Below are positions 14,225 through 39,900 of a stretch of DNA of 64,000 nucleotides, piece by piece. This DNA is from an uncultured Fibrobacteraceae bacterium (GTDB lineage: Bacteria > Krumholzibacteriota > Krumholzibacteriia > LZORAL124-64-63). The stretch spans positions 910 to 64,909 of the forward strand of contig CAYYYS010000013.1 in NCBI GenBank assembly GCA_964476155.1, in the 5' to 3' direction. The notes under the pieces were generated by a model that saw only the letters and a program-made list of their open reading frames with translations, was not told where the DNA came from and did no database searches. Every line of letters begins with the position of its first letter. Within the stretch, counting starts at the first letter, position 1. Position numbers and translations under genes: made by a program.

Positions 14225-15598
14225 ATGGACGCCTTGGAACCAGAACTCAGCCGCGCCCCCCATCCCGGGCAAAGCGTCCCCGGAAACCGTCTGCCGCCCC
14301 AGAACCAGGACGCCGAGCGTGCGATCCTGGGCGCCGTCATGCTCGACAAGGACGCGCTAGGCATGGCCATGGAGACCATCCAGGTCGAAGACTTCTATCG
14401 CCTGGAGCATCGGCTCGTTTTCCAGGTCATGTGCGAGCTGTACGAGACCGACCAGGCCATCGACGGCATCACCGTCGCCGAAGAACTCGAACGGCGCGCC
14501 CAGCTGCACAAGGCCGGCGGCAACGACTACCTGGCCGACATCCTGGCCGGCACCGCGACGGCCGCCAACGTCACCTACCACGCGCGCATCGTGCGCGACA
14601 AGTCGATCCTGCGCCGGCTGATCTCCGCCAGCAGCGAGATCGCGGGCGACGCCTTCGAGGGCGCCGACGACACCGACACCATCCTCGATACCGCCCAGAC
14701 CAAGATCTACCACATCGCCGAGAACCGGCAGACCCAGTCGTTCTTTTCGGTGAAGGACGTGGTGCCCGAAACCTTCCGCCGCATCGACGAGGCTTCGCGC
14801 CAGAAGGGCGACGTCACCGGCATCGCCACCGGCTTCCAGGAACTGGACCAGCGCACCGCCGGGCTACAGAACTCGGACCTGATCATCCTCGCCGCACGGC
14901 CCTCCATGGGCAAGACAGCCCTCGCTCTGAACATCGCCTACCATGCGGCGGTCAACGAGGGGACGCCGGTCGCCTTCTTCAGCCTGGAAATGGCCAAGGA
15001 GCAGCTGTGCATGCGTCTGATTTGCGCAAGCGGCGGTTTCAACAACCACGACCTGCGCCGCGGTAAGCTCAAGGCGGAGGACTGGCCCAAGCTCACCGAG
15101 GCCTGCAGCCGCCTGTCCGACGCGCCCATCTTCATCGACGATTCGAGTGGTATCTCGGTTCTCGAGATGAAGGCCAAGGCGCGGCGTCTGAAGCAGCAGC
15201 ACGATGTCGGCCTGATCATCATCGACTACATGCAGCTGATGACCAGCACCGCGCGGGCCGAGAACCGCCAGCAGGAAATCTCGGTGATCAGTCGCAACCT
15301 CAAGGGCATGGCCAAGGATCTCGACGTGCCGGTGATGGCCCTGAGCCAGCTTTCGCGCGCGGTGGAGAGCCGTGGCGATCACAAACCGCTGTTAAGTGAT
15401 CTGCGCGAATCGGGTTCGATCGAGCAGGACGCCGATGTAGTGCTTTTCCTGTTCCGCGAGGAATATTATAAGCCCGACGACGATACGGTCCGCAACCGGG
15501 CCACCATCAATATCGGCAAGCAGCGTAACGGGCCTATCGGGCAGTTTGATCTGCACTTCCACAAGGCTTATACGCGGTTCGGGAATTTGCAGCGCTAG
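14225..15598 (+). CDS. dnaB: Replicative DNA helicase
   Basis: PPQNQDAERAILG, AARPSMGKT, FSLEM, IIDYMQL, LSQLSR, SDLRESGSIEQDAD, KQRNGP. Confidence 0.98.
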   Translation: MDALEPELSRAPHPGQSVPGNRLPPQNQDAERAILGAVMLDKDALGMAMETIQVEDFYRLEHRLVFQVMCELYETDQAIDGITVAEELERRAQLHKAGGNDYLADILAGTATAANVTYHARIVRDKSILRRLISASSEIAGDAFEGADDTDTILDTAQTKIYHIAENRQTQSFFSVKDVVPETFRRIDEASRQKGDVTGIATGFQELDQRTAGLQNSDLIILAARPSMGKTALALNIAYHAAVNEGTPVAFFSLEMAKEQLCMRLICASGGFNNHDLRRGKLKAEDWPKLTEACSRLSDAPIFIDDSSGISVLEMKAKARRLKQQHDVGLIIIDYMQLMTSTARAENRQQEISVISRNLKGMAKDLDVPVMALSQLSRAVESRGDHKPLLSDLRESGSIEQDADVVLFLFREEYYKPDDDTVRNRATINIGKQRNGPIGQFDLHFHKAYTRFGNLQR

Positions 15599-15759
15599 TG
15601 CTCTGTCAACCTTTGATCTTGGGCTTGACGAGCCCACAAGCAGCCATCTGCTGCGTTGTACCCGCTTGAATTAGCTACGGCTAGTCCTGCGCTCGTACGC
15701 CTTGCATCTGACTACTTGTGAATTCGTCAAGCCCAAGATCAAAGGTTGACAAAGCACTA
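15596..15759. mobile_element. 164-bp TA-flanked hairpin element (MITE-like), copy 1
   Basis: TA + GTGCTCTGTCAA ... TTGACAAAGCAC + TA; long arm complementarity; 27-nt core identical to 36557-36583. Confidence 0.75.
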
Positions 15760-35600: not shown

Positions 35601-36490
35601 AAGGCGCACTCGTCAGCGCCGGCGCCGGCCTGGAGACGCTTACCAACCAGGACGGCTACTACATCCTGGATAATCTCTACTCCGGCACCTACCAGCTGGT
35701 CGCCAGCAAGGCGACCTACACGACCGTCACCGAGACGATCGAGGTCGGGGAGGGGGAAGCCGCCTACCTGGATTTCTGGCTCGATCCCACCACGACCGTC
35801 GAGTACACCGAGAGTACGCCGATCGCCATCCCGGACAGCGACGCGAACGGCATCACTTCGATCATCACTGTCGCGGAAACCAATGCTGTCTCGGCCGTGT
35901 CCGTGCCCATCGACATCACCCACACCTGGATCGGCGATCTGATCGCCGAGTTGACCTCGCCCCTGGGCACCACCGTGCGCCTGCACAATCGCACAGGCAG
36001 TTCGTCGGACGACATCCTCGGCATCTACGGCGACACTCTCGTTCCCGACGGACCGGGCGTCCTGCTCGACTTCACGGGCGAGAACCCGGCCGGCGACTGG
36101 ACCCTGTTCATCTCGGACAACGTCGGCTCGGATACCGGCACGCTCAACAGTTGGGGTCTCATCCTCGTTCTGCCCGACCCGAACACGGCTGTCGACGACG
36201 CCACGCCCCTGGTCACGCGCCTGCTGGGCAACACGCCCAACCCGTTCAATCCGCGCACGGTGATCGCCTTCGACCTGTCGCGGGCGACGGCACCACGCCT
36301 GTCCGTCTTCGACCTGCGCGGCCGCGAAGTGCGCCGCCTGCTCGACGGGCAGACCCTGACGGCCGGCCGACACCAGGTCGTATGGGACGGTCGCGACGGC
36401 ACGGGCCGCGCCCTGGCGAGCGGACTCTACCTGTATCGCTTCAGGGCCGATGGGGTGACCGAGGAAAGGAAGATGTTGCTGACGCGGTAG
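32696..36490 (+). CDS. Secreted S8 (subtilisin-like) serine peptidase with P-domain and FlgD/T9SS-like tail
   Basis: Triad LDTG, DHGT, GTSFSCP; P-domain DITHTWIGDL...GDWTLFISD; tail PNPFNP...VWDGRD...SGLY...RKMLLTR. Confidence 0.92.
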   Translation: MHRHIRLCAAMLFVLMIGPALPVAAADQPTVTSYLERALDDATYPHRDDAGRLAVWVYFRDKGLDGAALGAALDQAETDLSDRAARRRAKMKTVKGERLVDSTDLHVHRSYIDAVAATGAHPRRESRWLNAASFDATSAQIAAIATLPQVIKVDLVNMFRRDEMAVLPEDVAAREARNAELRAAKATAWTVDYGGNLAAMEQVNVPALHDEGVTGEGVLIGMLDTGFRTSHNALTPIPIIAEWDFINNDGEVDNEAGDPSNSNDHGTKTMSTAMGYEPGQHVAPAFGASVVLAKTEDVSQEIPIEEDNWVAGIEWLDTFGIDVASSSLGYLDWFTWADMDGNTAACTIAADLAVGKGIVVCNSAGNERGSSWNHIIAPADGDSVIAVGAVTSSGSYSYFSSPGPSYDGRIKPDVCALGSSNHVVSSTSDTAYTSASGTSFSCPLTAGVAALVLSRVPSLTPMQVRDALRETASQATTPNNDYGWGIIDAHAAAHYFGANIVHDSLSDTEDTTGPYTVTCTITDRVALDTDHLFLNWRIDGGGWFSELLSSLGGDDYAASITGQPAGTDVEYYLSALDALAITSTLPLDAPVSAFAFHVGPDVSAPVVTHQPLGDLPLLTWPGTLNVTAVDNIGIASVVVSFDHNGVPQPDFPLVDQGDDLYLADIPVLVEQVQAGDTFTYSILVTDMGTVPNTVTVGPFSLIVIDALGVVLVINDSAGKGDPEPKLGIDKRPLPAPTKTQKAPANDIERWLNETGYVVTLVDAASLQATDFDNKQFAILSSGDNLSPVAGAGLRTLVRDWVLAGGKLFIEGGETGYDAESSPGYPGFAADVLHVSDWRSDSAGDLQVVAGMGGHSLLNTPHVVPATLDITYGNYGDQDAMDPSLDAYMVMETANYTGAGGIIVFDDNPAPQSAQVVNFCFNLAAVADTTVARHLVENAAAFLMASEGVPTASISGMVAMLSGDVVFPVEGALVSAGAGLETLTNQDGYYILDNLYSGTYQLVASKATYTTVTETIEVGEGEAAYLDFWLDPTTTVEYTESTPIAIPDSDANGITSIITVAETNAVSAVSVPIDITHTWIGDLIAELTSPLGTTVRLHNRTGSSSDDILGIYGDTLVPDGPGVLLDFTGENPAGDWTLFISDNVGSDTGTLNSWGLILVLPDPNTAVDDATPLVTRLLGNTPNPFNPRTVIAFDLSRATAPRLSVFDLRGREVRRLLDGQTLTAGRHQVVWDGRDGTGRALASGLYLYRFRADGVTEERKMLLTR

Positions 36491-36651
36491 TGCTCTGTCA
36501 AACAGGAAATTGGGGGTTGGCGGGCTCACGAGCGGCCATCTGCGGCGTTGCACTCCCTTGAATTAGCTACGGCTAGTCCTGCGGTCGCGCGTCTTGCATC
36601 TGAGCACTCGTGAGCCCGCCAACCCCCAATTTCCTGTTTGACAGAACACTA
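36488..36651. mobile_element. 164-bp TA-flanked hairpin element (MITE-like), copy 2
   Basis: TA + GTGCTCTGTCAA ... TTGACAGAACAC + TA; about 43-bp stem with one mismatch; same length and core as 15596-15759. Confidence 0.75.
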
Positions 36652-36814: not shown

Positions 36815-37165
36815 TCAGATCGTCAGGGAGAGGGATTGGCGAAGACCCTGGTCGATTCGAGACATGGTTGTAGATGACAAGCGCTTGACTTTTTCTGTCA
36901 GACGACGCTTGTCGACCGTCATCAGTTGGGTGACGTTGGCGACGGATGGGCGCGGCAGTCCGCTTTCCCTGCGGTTGATGCGTATGTTGCCGGGTGCGTT
37001 TTCCCTGGACAGGTTGGTGGTCAGCACGACCAGGAAAACGGTACCCAAGCGGCTGAGATTGTAGGCGTCCGCCGAAACCACGACGGCTGGTCGACGGAAC
37101 CCGGGTTCCGAGCCGCTTGGTGTGGGTAGGTCCGCCCACCAGATTTCCCCCCGTTTTATTGCCAA
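36815..37165 (-). CDS. mazF: MazF/PemK-family toxin
   Basis: KRGEIWWADL, GSEPGFRRPAVVVS, SGLPRPSVANVTQLMTVDK; TTG start. Confidence 0.93.
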   Translation of the reverse strand: MAIKRGEIWWADLPTPSGSEPGFRRPAVVVSADAYNLSRLGTVFLVVLTTNLSRENAPGNIRINRRESGLPRPSVANVTQLMTVDKRRLTEKVKRLSSTTMSRIDQGLRQSLSLTI

Positions 37166-37401
37166 TCGTCCGGCTCCAATGCTTCAGCCTGGAGCGCAAT
37201 CCAGAATGGATCGAGCCTACTCGATTCCGGATCGTCCCCGTAGACACGGTTCAAAGCATCTGTAATCGCCTGTTGCCCCTCTCTTTCGAGGTAGGCCGCC
37301 ATGGCGCGCTGATAGAGCCTGCTGCGGCTGATGCCCAGGAGCTGCGCCAGCTGTTCGGCATCCTCGAAGAGGGTATCCGGTATGGAAATCGCAGTTTTCA
37401 T
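37156..37401 (-). CDS. Ribbon-helix-helix antitoxin (ChpI/MazE-like)
   Basis: MKTAISIPDTLF...GISRSRLY; upstream of and overlapping mazF. Confidence 0.88.
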   Translation of the reverse strand: MKTAISIPDTLFEDAEQLAQLLGISRSRLYQRAMAAYLEREGQQAITDALNRVYGDDPESSRLDPFWIALQAEALEPDDWQ

Positions 37402-37407
37402 GCCTAG

Positions 37408-37436
37408 AGTATAACTCAAGTTATACCTCCCGTCAA
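37408..37436 (-). promoter_or_regulatory. Toxin-antitoxin promoter with overlapping operator palindrome
   Basis: TTGACG, 17-bp spacer, TATACT on the minus strand; inverted repeat GTATAAC-N4-GTTATAC at 37409-37426. Confidence 0.75.
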
Positions 37437-37506
37437 TCCGTGTGGAGCCACACAAGCAAACCCCGTGCGTGAATCTTGCTCAGTCGTCTTTTGCTCGGTC
37501 CCCCCT

Positions 37507-37562: not shown

Positions 37563-38990
37563 ATGGCCAAGCAGACCACGCGTTACGTTTGCGGCAATTG
37601 CGGACACGATGAAGTTCGCTGGATGGGGCAATGCCCCCAGTGTCACGAATGGAACGCCATGACAGAAATCAAGCTGGGCAAGGTCGAAGGCAAGGGCCGC
37701 GGCACCGGTTTCGCCCGCGGACGGCCCAAGCGGACCGACACCGAGGCCGTGCAGCCGGTTTCCCTGGCCGATATCACCTCGGCGAGCCGCGACCGTCTGT
37801 CGGTCGAGCCGGAGGAGATCGCCCGCGTGCTGGGTGGCGGACTGGTGGTCGGTTCGGTGGTGCTGTTGGGTGGCGAGCCCGGCGTGGGCAAGTCGACGCT
37901 GCTGACCGGTCTGGCCCTGAGTTGGGTGAGCCAGGGTGTTCGTGTGCTCTATGTGGCGGGAGAGGAGTCGCCGCCGCAGATCCGCATACGCGCCGAGCGG
38001 CTCGGTTTCGACGCCAAGCGGACCGACGGCTTCCACATCCTGAACGAAGTCGACCTGGAAAAACTGTTGGCGGCCCTGTACGCCGATCGGGAGGCCCACC
38101 CCGGGCCGGTCGTGCTGATCGCCGATTCCATCCAGACCCTGCACAGCTCCGAGATCGACGCCTTCCCCGGCAGTGTCAGCCAGATCCGCTATTGCGGCGG
38201 CGTGCTGGCCAACTTCGCGCGATCATCGGGATGTCCAGTCTTCCTGGTGGGACACGTCACCAAGAGCGGCGACCTGGCGGGACCCAAGCTCCTCGAACAC
38301 ATGGTCGATACGGTTCTCTACTTCGAAGGTGACGGCGGCGGACCCGTGCGCATGGTCCGCGCGGTAAAAAACCGCTTCGGCGCCACCGGCGAGCTGGCCA
38401 TTCTGGAGATGCGCGGCGAGGGGTTGGTGCCGGTGGACGAGGCCGGCGCGCTGTTCCTGAGCGGACGGCGCGGCGAGGAACCCGGGGCCGCGGTGTGCGC
38501 GGTTCGCAACGGGTCACGCACTTTCCTGGTGGAAGTGCAGGCCCTGGTGTCTCCCACGCGTTACGGCACCCCCCAACGGGTGGTCCAGGGCGTGGACAGC
38601 AAGCGGGTGGCCCTGCTGGCGGCCATTCTCGAAAAGCGCGCGGGACTGGACCTGGCCGGCTGCGACATCTTCGTCAAGGTGGCCGGCGGAGCGCGCCTCG
38701 ATGATCCCGGCGCCGACCTGGCCATCGTCACGGCCCTGGCGTCGTCGCTGCGCGAGATCCCGGTGCCCATGGACACGCTGGTCATGGGCGAGGTCGGCCT
38801 GACCGGAGACGTTCGCGGCGTGAGCGATCGCTCGGGACGATTGCGCGAGGCGTCCCGTCACGGCTTCAAGCGCGCCGTGATCGCGCGGGTCAAGCCCGAC
38901 CGCAAGACCGAACAGGGTGTGGCCGTGACCGCCGTGACCACCGTCGACGAGGCGGTGGCCCTGGCCCTAGCCCGGATTATTCATGACTGA
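37563..38990 (+). CDS. radA: DNA repair protein RadA/Sms
   Basis: CGNCG...CPQCHEW zinc finger, GGEPGVGKST, DSIQT, KNRFG; last 6 codons come from the downstream hairpin element. Confidence 0.97.
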   Translation: MAKQTTRYVCGNCGHDEVRWMGQCPQCHEWNAMTEIKLGKVEGKGRGTGFARGRPKRTDTEAVQPVSLADITSASRDRLSVEPEEIARVLGGGLVVGSVVLLGGEPGVGKSTLLTGLALSWVSQGVRVLYVAGEESPPQIRIRAERLGFDAKRTDGFHILNEVDLEKLLAALYADREAHPGPVVLIADSIQTLHSSEIDAFPGSVSQIRYCGGVLANFARSSGCPVFLVGHVTKSGDLAGPKLLEHMVDTVLYFEGDGGGPVRMVRAVKNRFGATGELAILEMRGEGLVPVDEAGALFLSGRRGEEPGAAVCAVRNGSRTFLVEVQALVSPTRYGTPQRVVQGVDSKRVALLAAILEKRAGLDLAGCDIFVKVAGGARLDDPGADLAIVTALASSLREIPVPMDTLVMGEVGLTGDVRGVSDRSGRLREASRHGFKRAVIARVKPDRKTEQGVAVTAVTTVDEAVALALARIIHD

Positions 38991-39148
38991 GCTACTGCGG
39001 TCGCGTATGTTCAAGCCTGACAGCACGTCCTCGGCTTTGCTACCTCAACGTGCCTACGGGCACGCCTCGGTCCCAAAACCTTGCGGACGCCCTGTCAGGC
39101 TTGAACATACACAACCTCGCTACGCTCAGTCATGAATAATCCGGGCTA
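38968..39148. mobile_element. 181-bp TA-flanked hairpin element inserted in the 3' end of radA
   Basis: Perfect 25-bp outer IR (38968-38992 / 39124-39148), perfect 19-bp inner IR (39005-39023 / 39092-39110), apical CGTGCC-TACG-GGCACG. Confidence 0.75.
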
Positions 39149-39180
39149 AGTCGCTCCCGCAAGGCGGGGGGAGGAACACC

Positions 39181-39900
39181 GTGAACACCGTCCCGACACC
39201 CCTGCATCTGATCCTCCTGGCCGGCGGCGGCGGCACGCGGGCTCGTGAGGGCGCGCATGTGCCGCCCAAGCAGTTCACCGTGGCGGCCGGTCGTCTGCTG
39301 ATGGCCTGGAGCGCCAAAGCCCTGGCGGCCCATCCCGCCGCCACCAGCCTGGTCGTGACTTGTGCGCCCGAGTGGCGGGACGCGGCTACCGAGGCCCTGC
39401 CCGCTTCGCCCCGGCTCCTGTTCGCCGATCCGGGCGAGACCCGCACCGCGTCGACCTGGAGCGCGCTCCAGGTGTTGCGCGAGGCGGTCGCACCGGGCGA
39501 AACGGACCTGGTAGCCGTCCACGACGCGGCGCGTCCCTTCGCGACGACCGACCTGCTGGGCCGTGTCTACGAAGCCGCCCTCGTCAGCGGCGGCGCCGTG
39601 CCCGGCCTCCCCGTGGCCGACACCATCGTGGCCTGTCGCCCCGACGAAACCGGTCCGGTCCGCTACCTGGAGCGAGACACGCTCCACGCCGTCCAGACCC
39701 CCCAGGTTTTCCGCTGGTCCCTGCTGTACGACGTGCACGCCTGGGCCGCCCAGGAGGGACTGTCGTTCACCGACGACGGCGGTCTGATGGCTGATCGCGA
39801 CGATCCTCCGGTGGTTGTGGCGGGGGAGGAAACCAACTGGAAGGTAACCACCGCCGCCCATCTCGCGCGGGCGTGCGAGATCCTGGAGGTCGCTGGATGA
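39181..39900 (+). CDS. ispD: 2-C-methyl-D-erythritol 4-phosphate cytidylyltransferase (IspD/TarI family)
   Basis: LAGGGGTR, PKQF, VHDAARPF, VQTPQVF, TDD, NWKVTT; GTG start after GGAGG. Confidence 0.85.
   Translation: MNTVPTPLHLILLAGGGGTRAREGAHVPPKQFTVAAGRLLMAWSAKALAAHPAATSLVVTCAPEWRDAATEALPASPRLLFADPGETRTASTWSALQVLREAVAPGETDLVAVHDAARPFATTDLLGRVYEAALVSGGAVPGLPVADTIVACRPDETGPVRYLERDTLHAVQTPQVFRWSLLYDVHAWAAQEGLSFTDDGGLMADRDDPPVVVAGEETNWKVTTAAHLARACEILEVAG

Follow-up and report, generated by a model that had tools for sequence, protein, structure and literature searches.

The DNA that we analyzed is a stretch of 64,000 nucleotides (the window) from an uncultured marine bacterium, and within it the DNA-repair gene radA ends in six codons for ARIIHD and is parted from the next gene, ispD, by a strong hairpin, which raises the question of how this junction came about and what it means for the two genes. 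The initial annotation had proposed that a hairpin element was inserted into radA, rewrote the C-terminus of its product and broke its translational coupling to ispD. Our analysis makes it highly probable that a MITE, mobilized in trans, was inserted at a YTAR site in radA, exchanged the tail of RadA and uncoupled ispD. The features of the locus are as follows.

37563-38990, plus strand: radA/sms in its present form, 475 aa
38967-38970: left target duplication, CTAG, placed by the YTAR duplication statistics; relatives encode L-S here
38970-38990: last six radA codons and stop (ARIIHD*), supplied by the final base of the left duplication and the terminal repeat of the element
38971-39145: MITE proper, 175 bp, gene-less, one long imperfect hairpin
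39146-39149: right target duplication, CTAA
39149-39184, plus strand: remnant of the old radA 3' end, now untranslated, its encoded tail identical to that of the closest RadA relative, P0001
39181-39900, plus strand: ispD, the MEP-pathway cytidylyltransferase, 239 aa, intact, with a GTG start (Pfam IspD, 131 bits)

The inverted repeats described for the element in the initial annotation were both located, a perfect 25-nt repeat at 38968-38992 and 39124-39148 and a perfect inner 19-nt repeat at 39005-39023 and 39092-39110. The termini of the MITE comprise 16 nt, with CCCGGATTATTCATGA at 38971-38986 and its reverse complement at 39130-39145. The terminal 23-mer occurs at these two places only in the window and was never matched in 100 shuffles. 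Folded as RNA, 38960-39190 reaches -131.8 kcal/mol (z = -13.5), in agreement with the claim that a strong hairpin lies upstream of a MEP-pathway gene. The GC content of the MITE is 56.6% versus 69.3% for the flanking genes, and the sole ORF inside it, of 50 aa, lacks any family evidence. Two other hairpins in the window (15596-15759 and 36488-36651) have other termini and are separate from this MITE family.

As the initial annotation had read it, the element begins inside radA and supplies the end of the protein, which runs ...ALAL-ARIIHD-TGA with the stop at 38988-38990; the native part of the gene ends at about 38969. All reading frames meet a stop codon no more than 23 nt into the element end. 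Deletion of the element restores the frame, also as claimed, with 39149-39184 translating as SRSRKAGGGTP* and its TGA overlapping the ispD GTG at 39181. By Pfam, RadA contains AAA_25, Zn ribbon and Lon_C domains. The alignment with RadA structures in the PDB (5LKM and 8RXC) spans residues 1-464, the alignment of relatives' RadA proteins stops at residue 469-471, and the tail beyond is variable among relatives. Judged from these alignments, the swapped tail is outside the conserved RadA fold.

Evidence for the event itself came from relatives in which the site is empty. P0001, a RadA of 480 aa that is 95% identical to that of the window, is encoded on four JGI metagenome contigs (L270-L273), and its C-terminus is exactly ...ALALSRSRKAGGGTP, the tail predicted by the reconstruction. 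At that locus radA (709-2151) overlaps ispD (2148-2867), and the flanks share 92% and 89% DNA identity with the window. The JGI samples with this empty site are 3300033142, 3300033147, 3300033151 and 3300033154. Four species of the same genus also have the empty site; their RadA proteins end in ALALSR(S/A)R... and their radA genes overlap ispD by ATGA or GTGA. Both the native tail and the overlap had thus been correctly anticipated in the initial annotation. A RadA ending in ARIIHD or a long radA-ispD spacer, either of which it had regarded as contrary to its proposal, was found in no relative. Since a close relative retains the untouched site, insertion into the last codons of radA is proven. 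The site reads CTG AGC in all five relatives, so that the proposal has to assume an origin of the TA target within the lineage of the window. The insertion allele is 100% identical across contigs of independent assemblies, and this exact RadA is found on 10 contigs.

The extent of the target duplication was determined from 94 copies of the element. TA flanks about 80-90% of element ends. The base before the TA is the same as the putative last base of the element in 86 of the 94 copies (49.5 expected), and the putative first base of the element is the same as the base after the TA in 85 (47.6 expected). Because the bases on both sides of the TA match across these copies, the duplication is the 4-bp YTAR and extends beyond TA alone, with Y at target position -1 and R at +1 in about 95-97% of them. 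The 181-bp element flanked by TA that was initially delineated is therefore upheld as an insertion, of 179 bp net whether parsed with a TA or a 4-bp duplication, and is revised at its boundaries to 175 bp proper between copies of YTAR. The duplication in radA is imperfect by one base (CTAG versus CTAA). The left copy was probably CTAA originally, and an A-to-G change made residue 470 an A where it had been a T.

Additional copies of the element, another expectation of the initial annotation, were found both within this genome and well outside it. The genome has four full-length and two internally deleted copies as well as four solo ends. Within the taxonomic family, 25 of 91 genomes carry the element, as do at least 120 stretches from many phyla. 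The 16-nt termini are kept in all copies. For assignment as a MITE we required a length below about 600 bp and no transposase-coding capacity, and the element has both properties. Based on these features, together with its terminal repeats and duplication, its multiple copies and the autonomous counterpart described below, the sequence identifies it as a MITE. Two other genes of the genome, one MqnA-like and one for a PALP-family enzyme, also have element-encoded tails, both ...LTRIIHE*. Long ORFs that enter element ends were used qualitatively, given that antisense ORFs in GC-rich DNA contaminate their count. A single match in viral contigs, at chance level, was obtained in the search for carriage by phages.

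The cognate insertion sequence came only from a search by transposase family; no autonomous copy was present among the 120 cross-phylum MITE loci. In related genomes (L230, L231, L245, L246 and L276-L280) there is an insertion sequence of 1668-1682 bp whose termini are identical to those of the MITE. It carries a single ORF, encoding a 457-aa DDE transposase that scores 376 bits against NF033539 (IS1380 family transposase, cut-off 180) and 419 bits against PF13701. Its ends start CCCGG..., and perfect duplications of CTAG, of CTAA and, twice, of TTAA were observed; five of the nine copies examined have non-identical YTAR flanks. Members of the IS1380 family, as known from ISfinder, are about 1.55-2.0 kb long with one ORF, ends beginning CC and a 4-5-bp duplication. 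By transposase score, length, single ORF, CC ends and duplication, the parent insertion sequence is assigned to the IS1380 family. The likeness between MITE and insertion sequence is confined to 16-17 terminal nt, and the 16-nt termini are conserved across transposases that are only 56% identical. Given these same ends, it is most likely that the 457-aa IS1380-family transposase moves the MITE in trans. IS1380 transposases are modestly enriched with the MITE, in 14 of 25 carrier genomes versus 20 of 66 others (p = 0.03). An intact cognate transposase is absent from the assembly of this genome, in which the search returned a 61-bit remnant only (G000:C6:23438-23713). In metagenomes, the clade of this insertion sequence is represented by over 7,800 transposase homologues, most of them on orphan 1.7-kb contigs.

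Several other explanations of the junction were weighed against the insertion of an IS1380-mobilized MITE. It might be supposed that the ancestor already had the element here and that the relatives lost it by precise excision, as piggyBac-type relatives of IS1380 do excise precisely, or that the junction is an artefact of assembly, the genome being a metagenome-assembled bin. However, five independent relatives and the wider taxonomic family have overlapping genes and no element, precise excision would leave CTA(A) where the relatives show CTG, and contigs of independent assemblies carry one and the same filled allele, so that we regard the chance of either as close to negligible. It is very unlikely that the hairpin serves radA and ispD as a dedicated regulatory RNA (attenuator, terminator or processing site) rather than being a chance insertion. 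In favor of such a role are the very stable fold immediately upstream of a gene of an essential pathway and the known action of RNases on Correia and ERIC hairpins (PMC10969869). Nevertheless, the element is missing at this locus in all relatives and the same element is found at unrelated loci in unrelated phyla. Further, an Rfam search gave no match at E <= 1, a scan of 38700-39400 for sigma-70 promoters and intrinsic terminators gave none, and the elements have no orientation bias relative to genes reading into them (34 versus 30).

Two of the alternatives concern the enzyme that moves the element. A MITE of the Correia/ERIC type, with a TA duplication and moved by an IS630/Tc1-like transposase, would account for the TA at about 80-90% of the ends, and the size and hairpin of the element resemble those of Correia and ERIC elements (PMC10969869). 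Yet the bases adjoining the TA are also duplicated, DDE_3 is missing from this genome and from all element-rich genomes, the terminus was found at 0 of 20 IS630 loci with up to 3 mismatches allowed, and an IS1380-family insertion sequence with identical ends exists, all of which makes this origin extremely improbable. IS630/DDE_3 was rejected as the mobilizer on its absence here, its lack of correlation with the element and the lack of matching termini at its loci. The hairpin might instead move as single-stranded DNA, either as a REPIN with a RAYT (Y1) enzyme or as an attC-like site with a tyrosine recombinase, with the covarying stem as the recognition structure. Compensatory changes over the whole hairpin at 39 of 62 pairs (0 of 500 shuffles) and the finding that one strand of the element always folds better than the other are both consistent with this mode. 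It is nonetheless a most unlikely one, since such transposition gives no target duplication and a duplication is present, this genome and most element-rich genomes have no Y1_Tnp, and a DDE-type insertion sequence has identical termini. The Y1/RAYT transposase was likewise rejected as a candidate mobilizer, as PF01797 is absent from the genome and uncorrelated with the element.

Among known systems, the parent insertion sequence is like other members of the IS1380 family (such as IS1380, IS1247 and ISEcp1) in its transposase, single ORF, length of about 1.67 kb, CC ends and short duplication (here 4 bp). The inverted repeats of IS1247 (1672 bp), for example, measure 16/13 bp and its duplication 5 bp (PMC3281130, Table 2). 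The object in the window differs in being a 175-bp gene-less derivative with only the terminal 16-17 nt in common. IS1380 transposases are distant prokaryotic relatives of piggyBac and form the outgroup in piggyBac trees (PMC10140906, PMC10813416), and piggyBac itself has CCC/GGG ends and a 4-bp TTAA duplication (PMC10140906). The clade described here resembles it in its CCCGG/CCGGG ends and YTAR duplication, which includes TTAA; however, piggyBac is eukaryotic, whereas the hosts here are bacteria, the transposase has 457 aa and none of the accessory domains of piggyBac, and its target is the less stringent YTAR.

In Geobacter uraniireducens, the Chunjie MITE measures 178-235 bp and its RNA hairpin has -98 to -130 kcal/mol (Chen et al. 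2008, as summarized in PMC3184786 and PMC10969869). One of its copies lies within an operon and several overlap protein genes, events which, as far as those summaries describe them, are of the same kind as the insertion into radA. From the same accounts, its 21-bp terminal repeats and 9-bp duplications indicate a transposase family other than the one here, and it is reported as confined to one species, in contrast to the cross-phylum family of this study. Correia (CREE/NEMIS, of Neisseria) and ERIC (of enterobacteria) elements are small palindromic MITEs at gene ends, where their hairpins are co-transcribed and acted on by RNase III (Correia) or RNase E (ERIC), altering mRNA levels (PMC10969869). 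They differ in their TA-only duplication, unrelated sequences and restriction to one genus or family, and their mobilizing enzymes differ or are unknown; they are the best model of a possible effect of the hairpin on the radA-ispD transcript. The palindromic repeats of Rickettsia (RPE) alter the products of protein genes (PMC10969869), as the radA element does, but are translated in frame and add a peptide within the protein. In the radA element all frames are closed within about 23 nt, and therefore only C-terminal tails can be replaced.

We found no publication in a literature search for the terminal sequence, no description of an IS1380-derived MITE in a limited search, and no mention of IS1380 anywhere in a 2024 review of prokaryotic MITEs. 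A limited literature search also gave no description of the strict YTAR/TTAA target or of 16-nt termini kept over transposases only 56% identical. The MITE family is probably undescribed so far, and the kind of element is already known; the insertion into radA is an ordinary type of event.

In the sequence of events that we propose, a synonymous CTG-to-CTA change would first have created the YTAR target in radA, the native part of which has zero YTAR in 1404 nt. The 175-bp MITE then entered CTAA, 11 codons before the end of the gene, with duplication of 4 bp. Because the element end has stops in every frame, RadA exchanged its variable 11-residue tail for ARIIHD. Comparison with the relatives, in which ispD begins at the same overlap codon, indicates that the ancestral arrangement of radA and ispD is a 4-bp overlap (GTGA), and the 179 inserted bases now part the radA stop from the ispD start, at a present distance of 190 nt. 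The Shine-Dalgarno sequence of ispD, GGAGGA at 39170-39175, lies inside the radA remnant. Thus, as far as can be read from the DNA, ispD retains its start codon and ribosome-binding site and has lost translational coupling. We infer that radA and ispD are on one transcript, in which ispD, placed beyond a hairpin of about -130 kcal/mol, would need independent initiation at its own GTG and Shine-Dalgarno sequence, and the insertion may have altered the expression of ispD.

Arm self-complementarity is 0.67 versus a between-copy identity of 0.60 (from a crude global alignment), a comparison that was uninformative. We speculate, with considerable doubt, that the hairpin body is kept by selection for cruciform extrusion, which would bring the terminal-repeat duplexes side by side at a four-way junction. 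If this were true, the cruciform would be a ready-made synapse for an IS1380/piggyBac-type transposase in an element whose length is below the DNA persistence length. It would also explain why 62 base pairs are kept by compensatory change despite only 16 nt in common with the insertion sequence, as well as the upkeep of the stem across phyla and the lack of orientation bias relative to transcription. An alternative form of the idea is that selection acts through an RNA-level or host-level role of the conserved asymmetric core.

The MITE connects a widespread, multi-phylum hairpin element with a very large clade of the IS1380 family. This link accounts for binned genomes that have MITEs without a transposase, and for the build-up of such elements at gene ends and on stop codons when a genome is GC-rich; YTAR is rare within genes. 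The locus itself is a clean natural experiment in which the same gene pair exists with and without a 179-bp hairpin insertion, and comparison of the two alleles would make measurable the importance of coupling and of a -130 kcal/mol structure for the distal gene of an operon.

The 3′ end of radA in the window carries a 175-bp gene-less hairpin transposon (the MITE), with a perfect 25-nt inverted repeat at its ends (38968–38992 and 39124–39148) and a perfect inner repeat of 19 nt (39005–39023 and 39092–39110); both repeats are as the initial annotation had claimed. The strong hairpin that it had placed ahead of ispD was also apparent, as RNA from 38960–39190 folded at −131.8 kcal/mol (z = −13.5), and the element's terminal 23-mer occurred in the window at its two ends only (0 matches in 100 shuffles). 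The features of the junction are the following:

37563–38990, + strand: radA, reading ...VDEAVALAL-ARIIHD-TGA (Pfam AAA_25, Zn ribbon, Lon_C)
38971–39145, no strand assigned: MITE proper (175 bp), CCCGG...CCGGG between CTAG and CTAA
39149–39184, + strand: relic of the old radA tail, translation SRSRKAGGGTP-TGA, its TGA overlapping the ispD GTG at 39181
39170–39175, + strand: GGAGGA, the ispD Shine-Dalgarno sequence
39181 (GTG start), + strand: ispD (Pfam IspD, 131 bits)

The window copy has a private compensatory C-G pair at 38987–39129 where its closest paralogues have A-T, and the terminal 25-nt repeat thus stays perfect. Directly upstream of radA (36815–37455, minus strand) are a PemK/MazF-like toxin gene and its small upstream partner ORF, an order that is kept on relatives' contigs. 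Two copies of another 164-bp hairpin element (15596–15759 and 36488–36651; termini TAGTGCTCTGTCAA...) have ends unrelated to those of the radA MITE.

RadA was present in all 40 related genomes searched, and the alignments ended where the element starts, at residue 469–471 of 475. The RadA C-termini of four same-genus species were ALALSRARAAGEGKA, ALALSRARGGES, ALALSRSRAAGEGKA and ALALSRSRAGKGSA, and in each the radA stop and ispD start overlapped as ATGA or GTGA. Relatives with a long spacer were not found: in the wider taxonomic family ispD was always 3′ of radA at a spacing of −4 to about 60 nt, against which the 190-nt gap in the window genome is an outlier. The closest empty site was that of P0001, a metagenomic RadA of 480 aa (95% identical to the window RadA) on four JGI contigs, where radA (709–2151) and ispD (2148–2867) overlap. 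Deletion of the element plus one TA had been predicted to restore an ancestral tail and a GTGA overlap, and P0001 ends in ...ALALSRSRKAGGGTP, matching that tail at every letter; its DNA reads GCC CTG AGC CGG TCC CGC AAG GCG GGG GGA GGA ACA CC GTGA. On the two sides of the empty site, DNA identity to the window was 92% and 89%, and the alignment was interrupted exactly at the element. On these comparisons, the proposed reconstruction of the ancestral junction is correct. The empty-site relative, at about 90–92% DNA identity, is probably a sister species rather than a conspecific strain. The exact window RadA was found on ten contigs. Two of them were examined, one from ENA ERZ23498668 and one from the independent assembly JGI 3300007511; both were 100% identical to the window over 3.8–3.9 kb, element included, so an assembly error does not account for the filled allele.

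The description of the element as TA-flanked held in that TA adjoins most element ends, but the duplication proved longer. In 86 of 94 copies (chance ~50) the last base of the element was the same as the base preceding the TA, and in 85 of 94 (chance ~48) its first base was the same as the base following the TA. Together with the target consensus Y-TA-R, these matches make the duplication a 4-bp YTAR and leave CCCGG...CCGGG as the element proper. Relatives encode Leu-Ser at the radA site, which favours CTAA as the sequence first targeted; the left copy would then have changed from A to G afterwards. Since all relatives have CTG AGC at the insertion point, the target TA presumably arose in the window lineage by a synonymous change. 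YTAR occurs about once per kb in the window and not at all in the 1404 nt of native radA, and its scarcity in GC-rich DNA helps to account for the clustering of copies near the ends of genes.

Several candidates for the mobilising enzyme were considered. Neither an IS630-type (DDE_3) nor a Y1 transposase is present in the window genome or tracks the element, and identity as a REPIN was rejected on the same grounds for Y1. The duplication in the family is not confined to TA, which sets the MITE apart from Correia and ERIC elements and from the IS630 type. A DDE_Tnp_1 search of element-rich genomes instead identified an insertion sequence (IS) of 1668–1670 bp whose ends are the MITE's CCCGGATTATTCATGAA in inverted orientation, and whose only ORF (457 aa) encodes a transposase of the IS1380 family (376 bits on NF033539, where the cut-off is 180, and 419 bits on PF13701). 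Additional copies in four other genomes of the taxonomic family, and metagenomic copies with transposases only 56–78% identical, shared its 16-nt ends, were of similar length and were flanked by YTAR. Where the duplication was perfect, it was CTAG, CTAA or (twice) TTAA. Across this clade (loci L230, L231, L245, L246 and L276–L280) the 16-nt termini were identical though the transposases were only 56% identical. MITE and IS had no common sequence except the terminal 16 nt. IS1380 transposases were found in 14 of 25 genomes with the MITE versus 20 of 66 without (p = 0.03). By its termini and target, then, the element is a MITE of an IS1380-family IS. The sole trace of such a transposase in the window genome was a ~92-aa fragment on another contig (G000:C6:23438–23713; 61 bits) without a nearby element terminus. 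The transposase clade is very large (>7,800 homologues with E ≤ 1e-80), and as the majority lie on orphan contigs of ~1.7 kb, the IS assembles on its own; this would plausibly account for binned genomes lacking it. The MITE copies of the window genome are probably stranded, unless binning has removed the IS.

IS1380 transposases are prokaryotic relatives of piggyBac, whose ends are CCC/GGG and whose duplication is TTAA (PMC10140906, PMC10813416). The MITE and its IS clade mirror this signature, with CCCGG/CCGGG at the ends and a 4-bp YTAR/TTAA duplication. In a limited literature search we found no description of the MITE's terminal string and no published account of the family; IS1380 also goes unmentioned in a review of prokaryotic MITEs from 2024. 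The radA event itself is an ordinary MITE insertion, documented unusually well.

Further copies, anticipated by the initial annotation, were found. The window genome contains four full-length copies (76–100% identical), two internally deleted ones (~95 bp) and four solo ends, about ten copies or fragments in all, and the family extends across the taxonomic family (25 of 91 genomes, 12 of 28 genera). A two-arm pattern scan of a named species collection matched at least 120 stretches, with Planctomycetota, Acidobacteriota, several gammaproteobacterial families, Nitrospirota, Myxococcota, Desulfobacterota, Saprospiraceae and others, as named in the record titles, among the matches listed. Across 25 aligned copies, a 62-pair structure had 94.6% of its cells paired (35–45% in slid controls), with both-sided changes at 39 pairs, a number reached by 0 of 500 shuffles. 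One strand folded better by ~14 kcal/mol in 25 of 25 aligned and 41 of 43 cross-phylum copies. The possibility that the hairpin is an evolved regulator was set aside, since element orientation relative to genes reading in was unbiased (34 versus 30, p = 0.71, on crude gene calls), no Rfam family matched the element and no promoter-like or terminator-like site was found in 38700–39400; we take the hairpin to be a feature of the transposon itself.

From the duplication into the element, one frame stops at TAR (offset 0), another at TGA (offset 16) and the third at TGA (offset 20, a feature of the window genome's subfamily). With every frame soon stopped, insertion near a gene end costs just a short tail swap. 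Elsewhere in the window genome, the element-encoded end ...LTRIIHE* recurs in two genes, one MqnA-like and one for a PALP-family enzyme. The latter tail (...DDLTRIIHE*) is provided by a truncated copy (G000:C35:5663–5734). The former gene (...DLTRIIHE*) is separated from the next ORF by exactly a solo terminus (G000:C4:56741–56765, minus strand), inside which that ORF's first ATG overlaps the upstream stop (ATGAATGA); this remnant may supply both stop and start. A 95-bp internally deleted copy (G000:C2:140398–140492) lies between two convergent ORFs, and the duplication is the TAA stop of a GT4 glycosyltransferase.

The swap of 11 RadA residues for 6 is probably neutral. Among relatives, the residues following ALAL differ in both number and sequence, and alignment of the solved structures 5LKM and 8RXC to the window RadA reaches residue 464 only. 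The ispD ORF, GTG start and Shine-Dalgarno sequence lie 3′ of the insertion and are intact. Because radA translation now terminates 190 nt before ispD, translational coupling would be lost at the filled site. The presumed common transcript contains a very stable stem. Among known MITE hairpins, those of Correia and ERIC elements can be RNase III substrates or can change the decay of mRNA (PMC10969869), and the Chunjie MITE can sit within an operon without disturbing it (PMC3184786); by analogy, the insertion at radA–ispD may lead to cleavage of the hairpin or altered mRNA decay, or may cause no disturbance.
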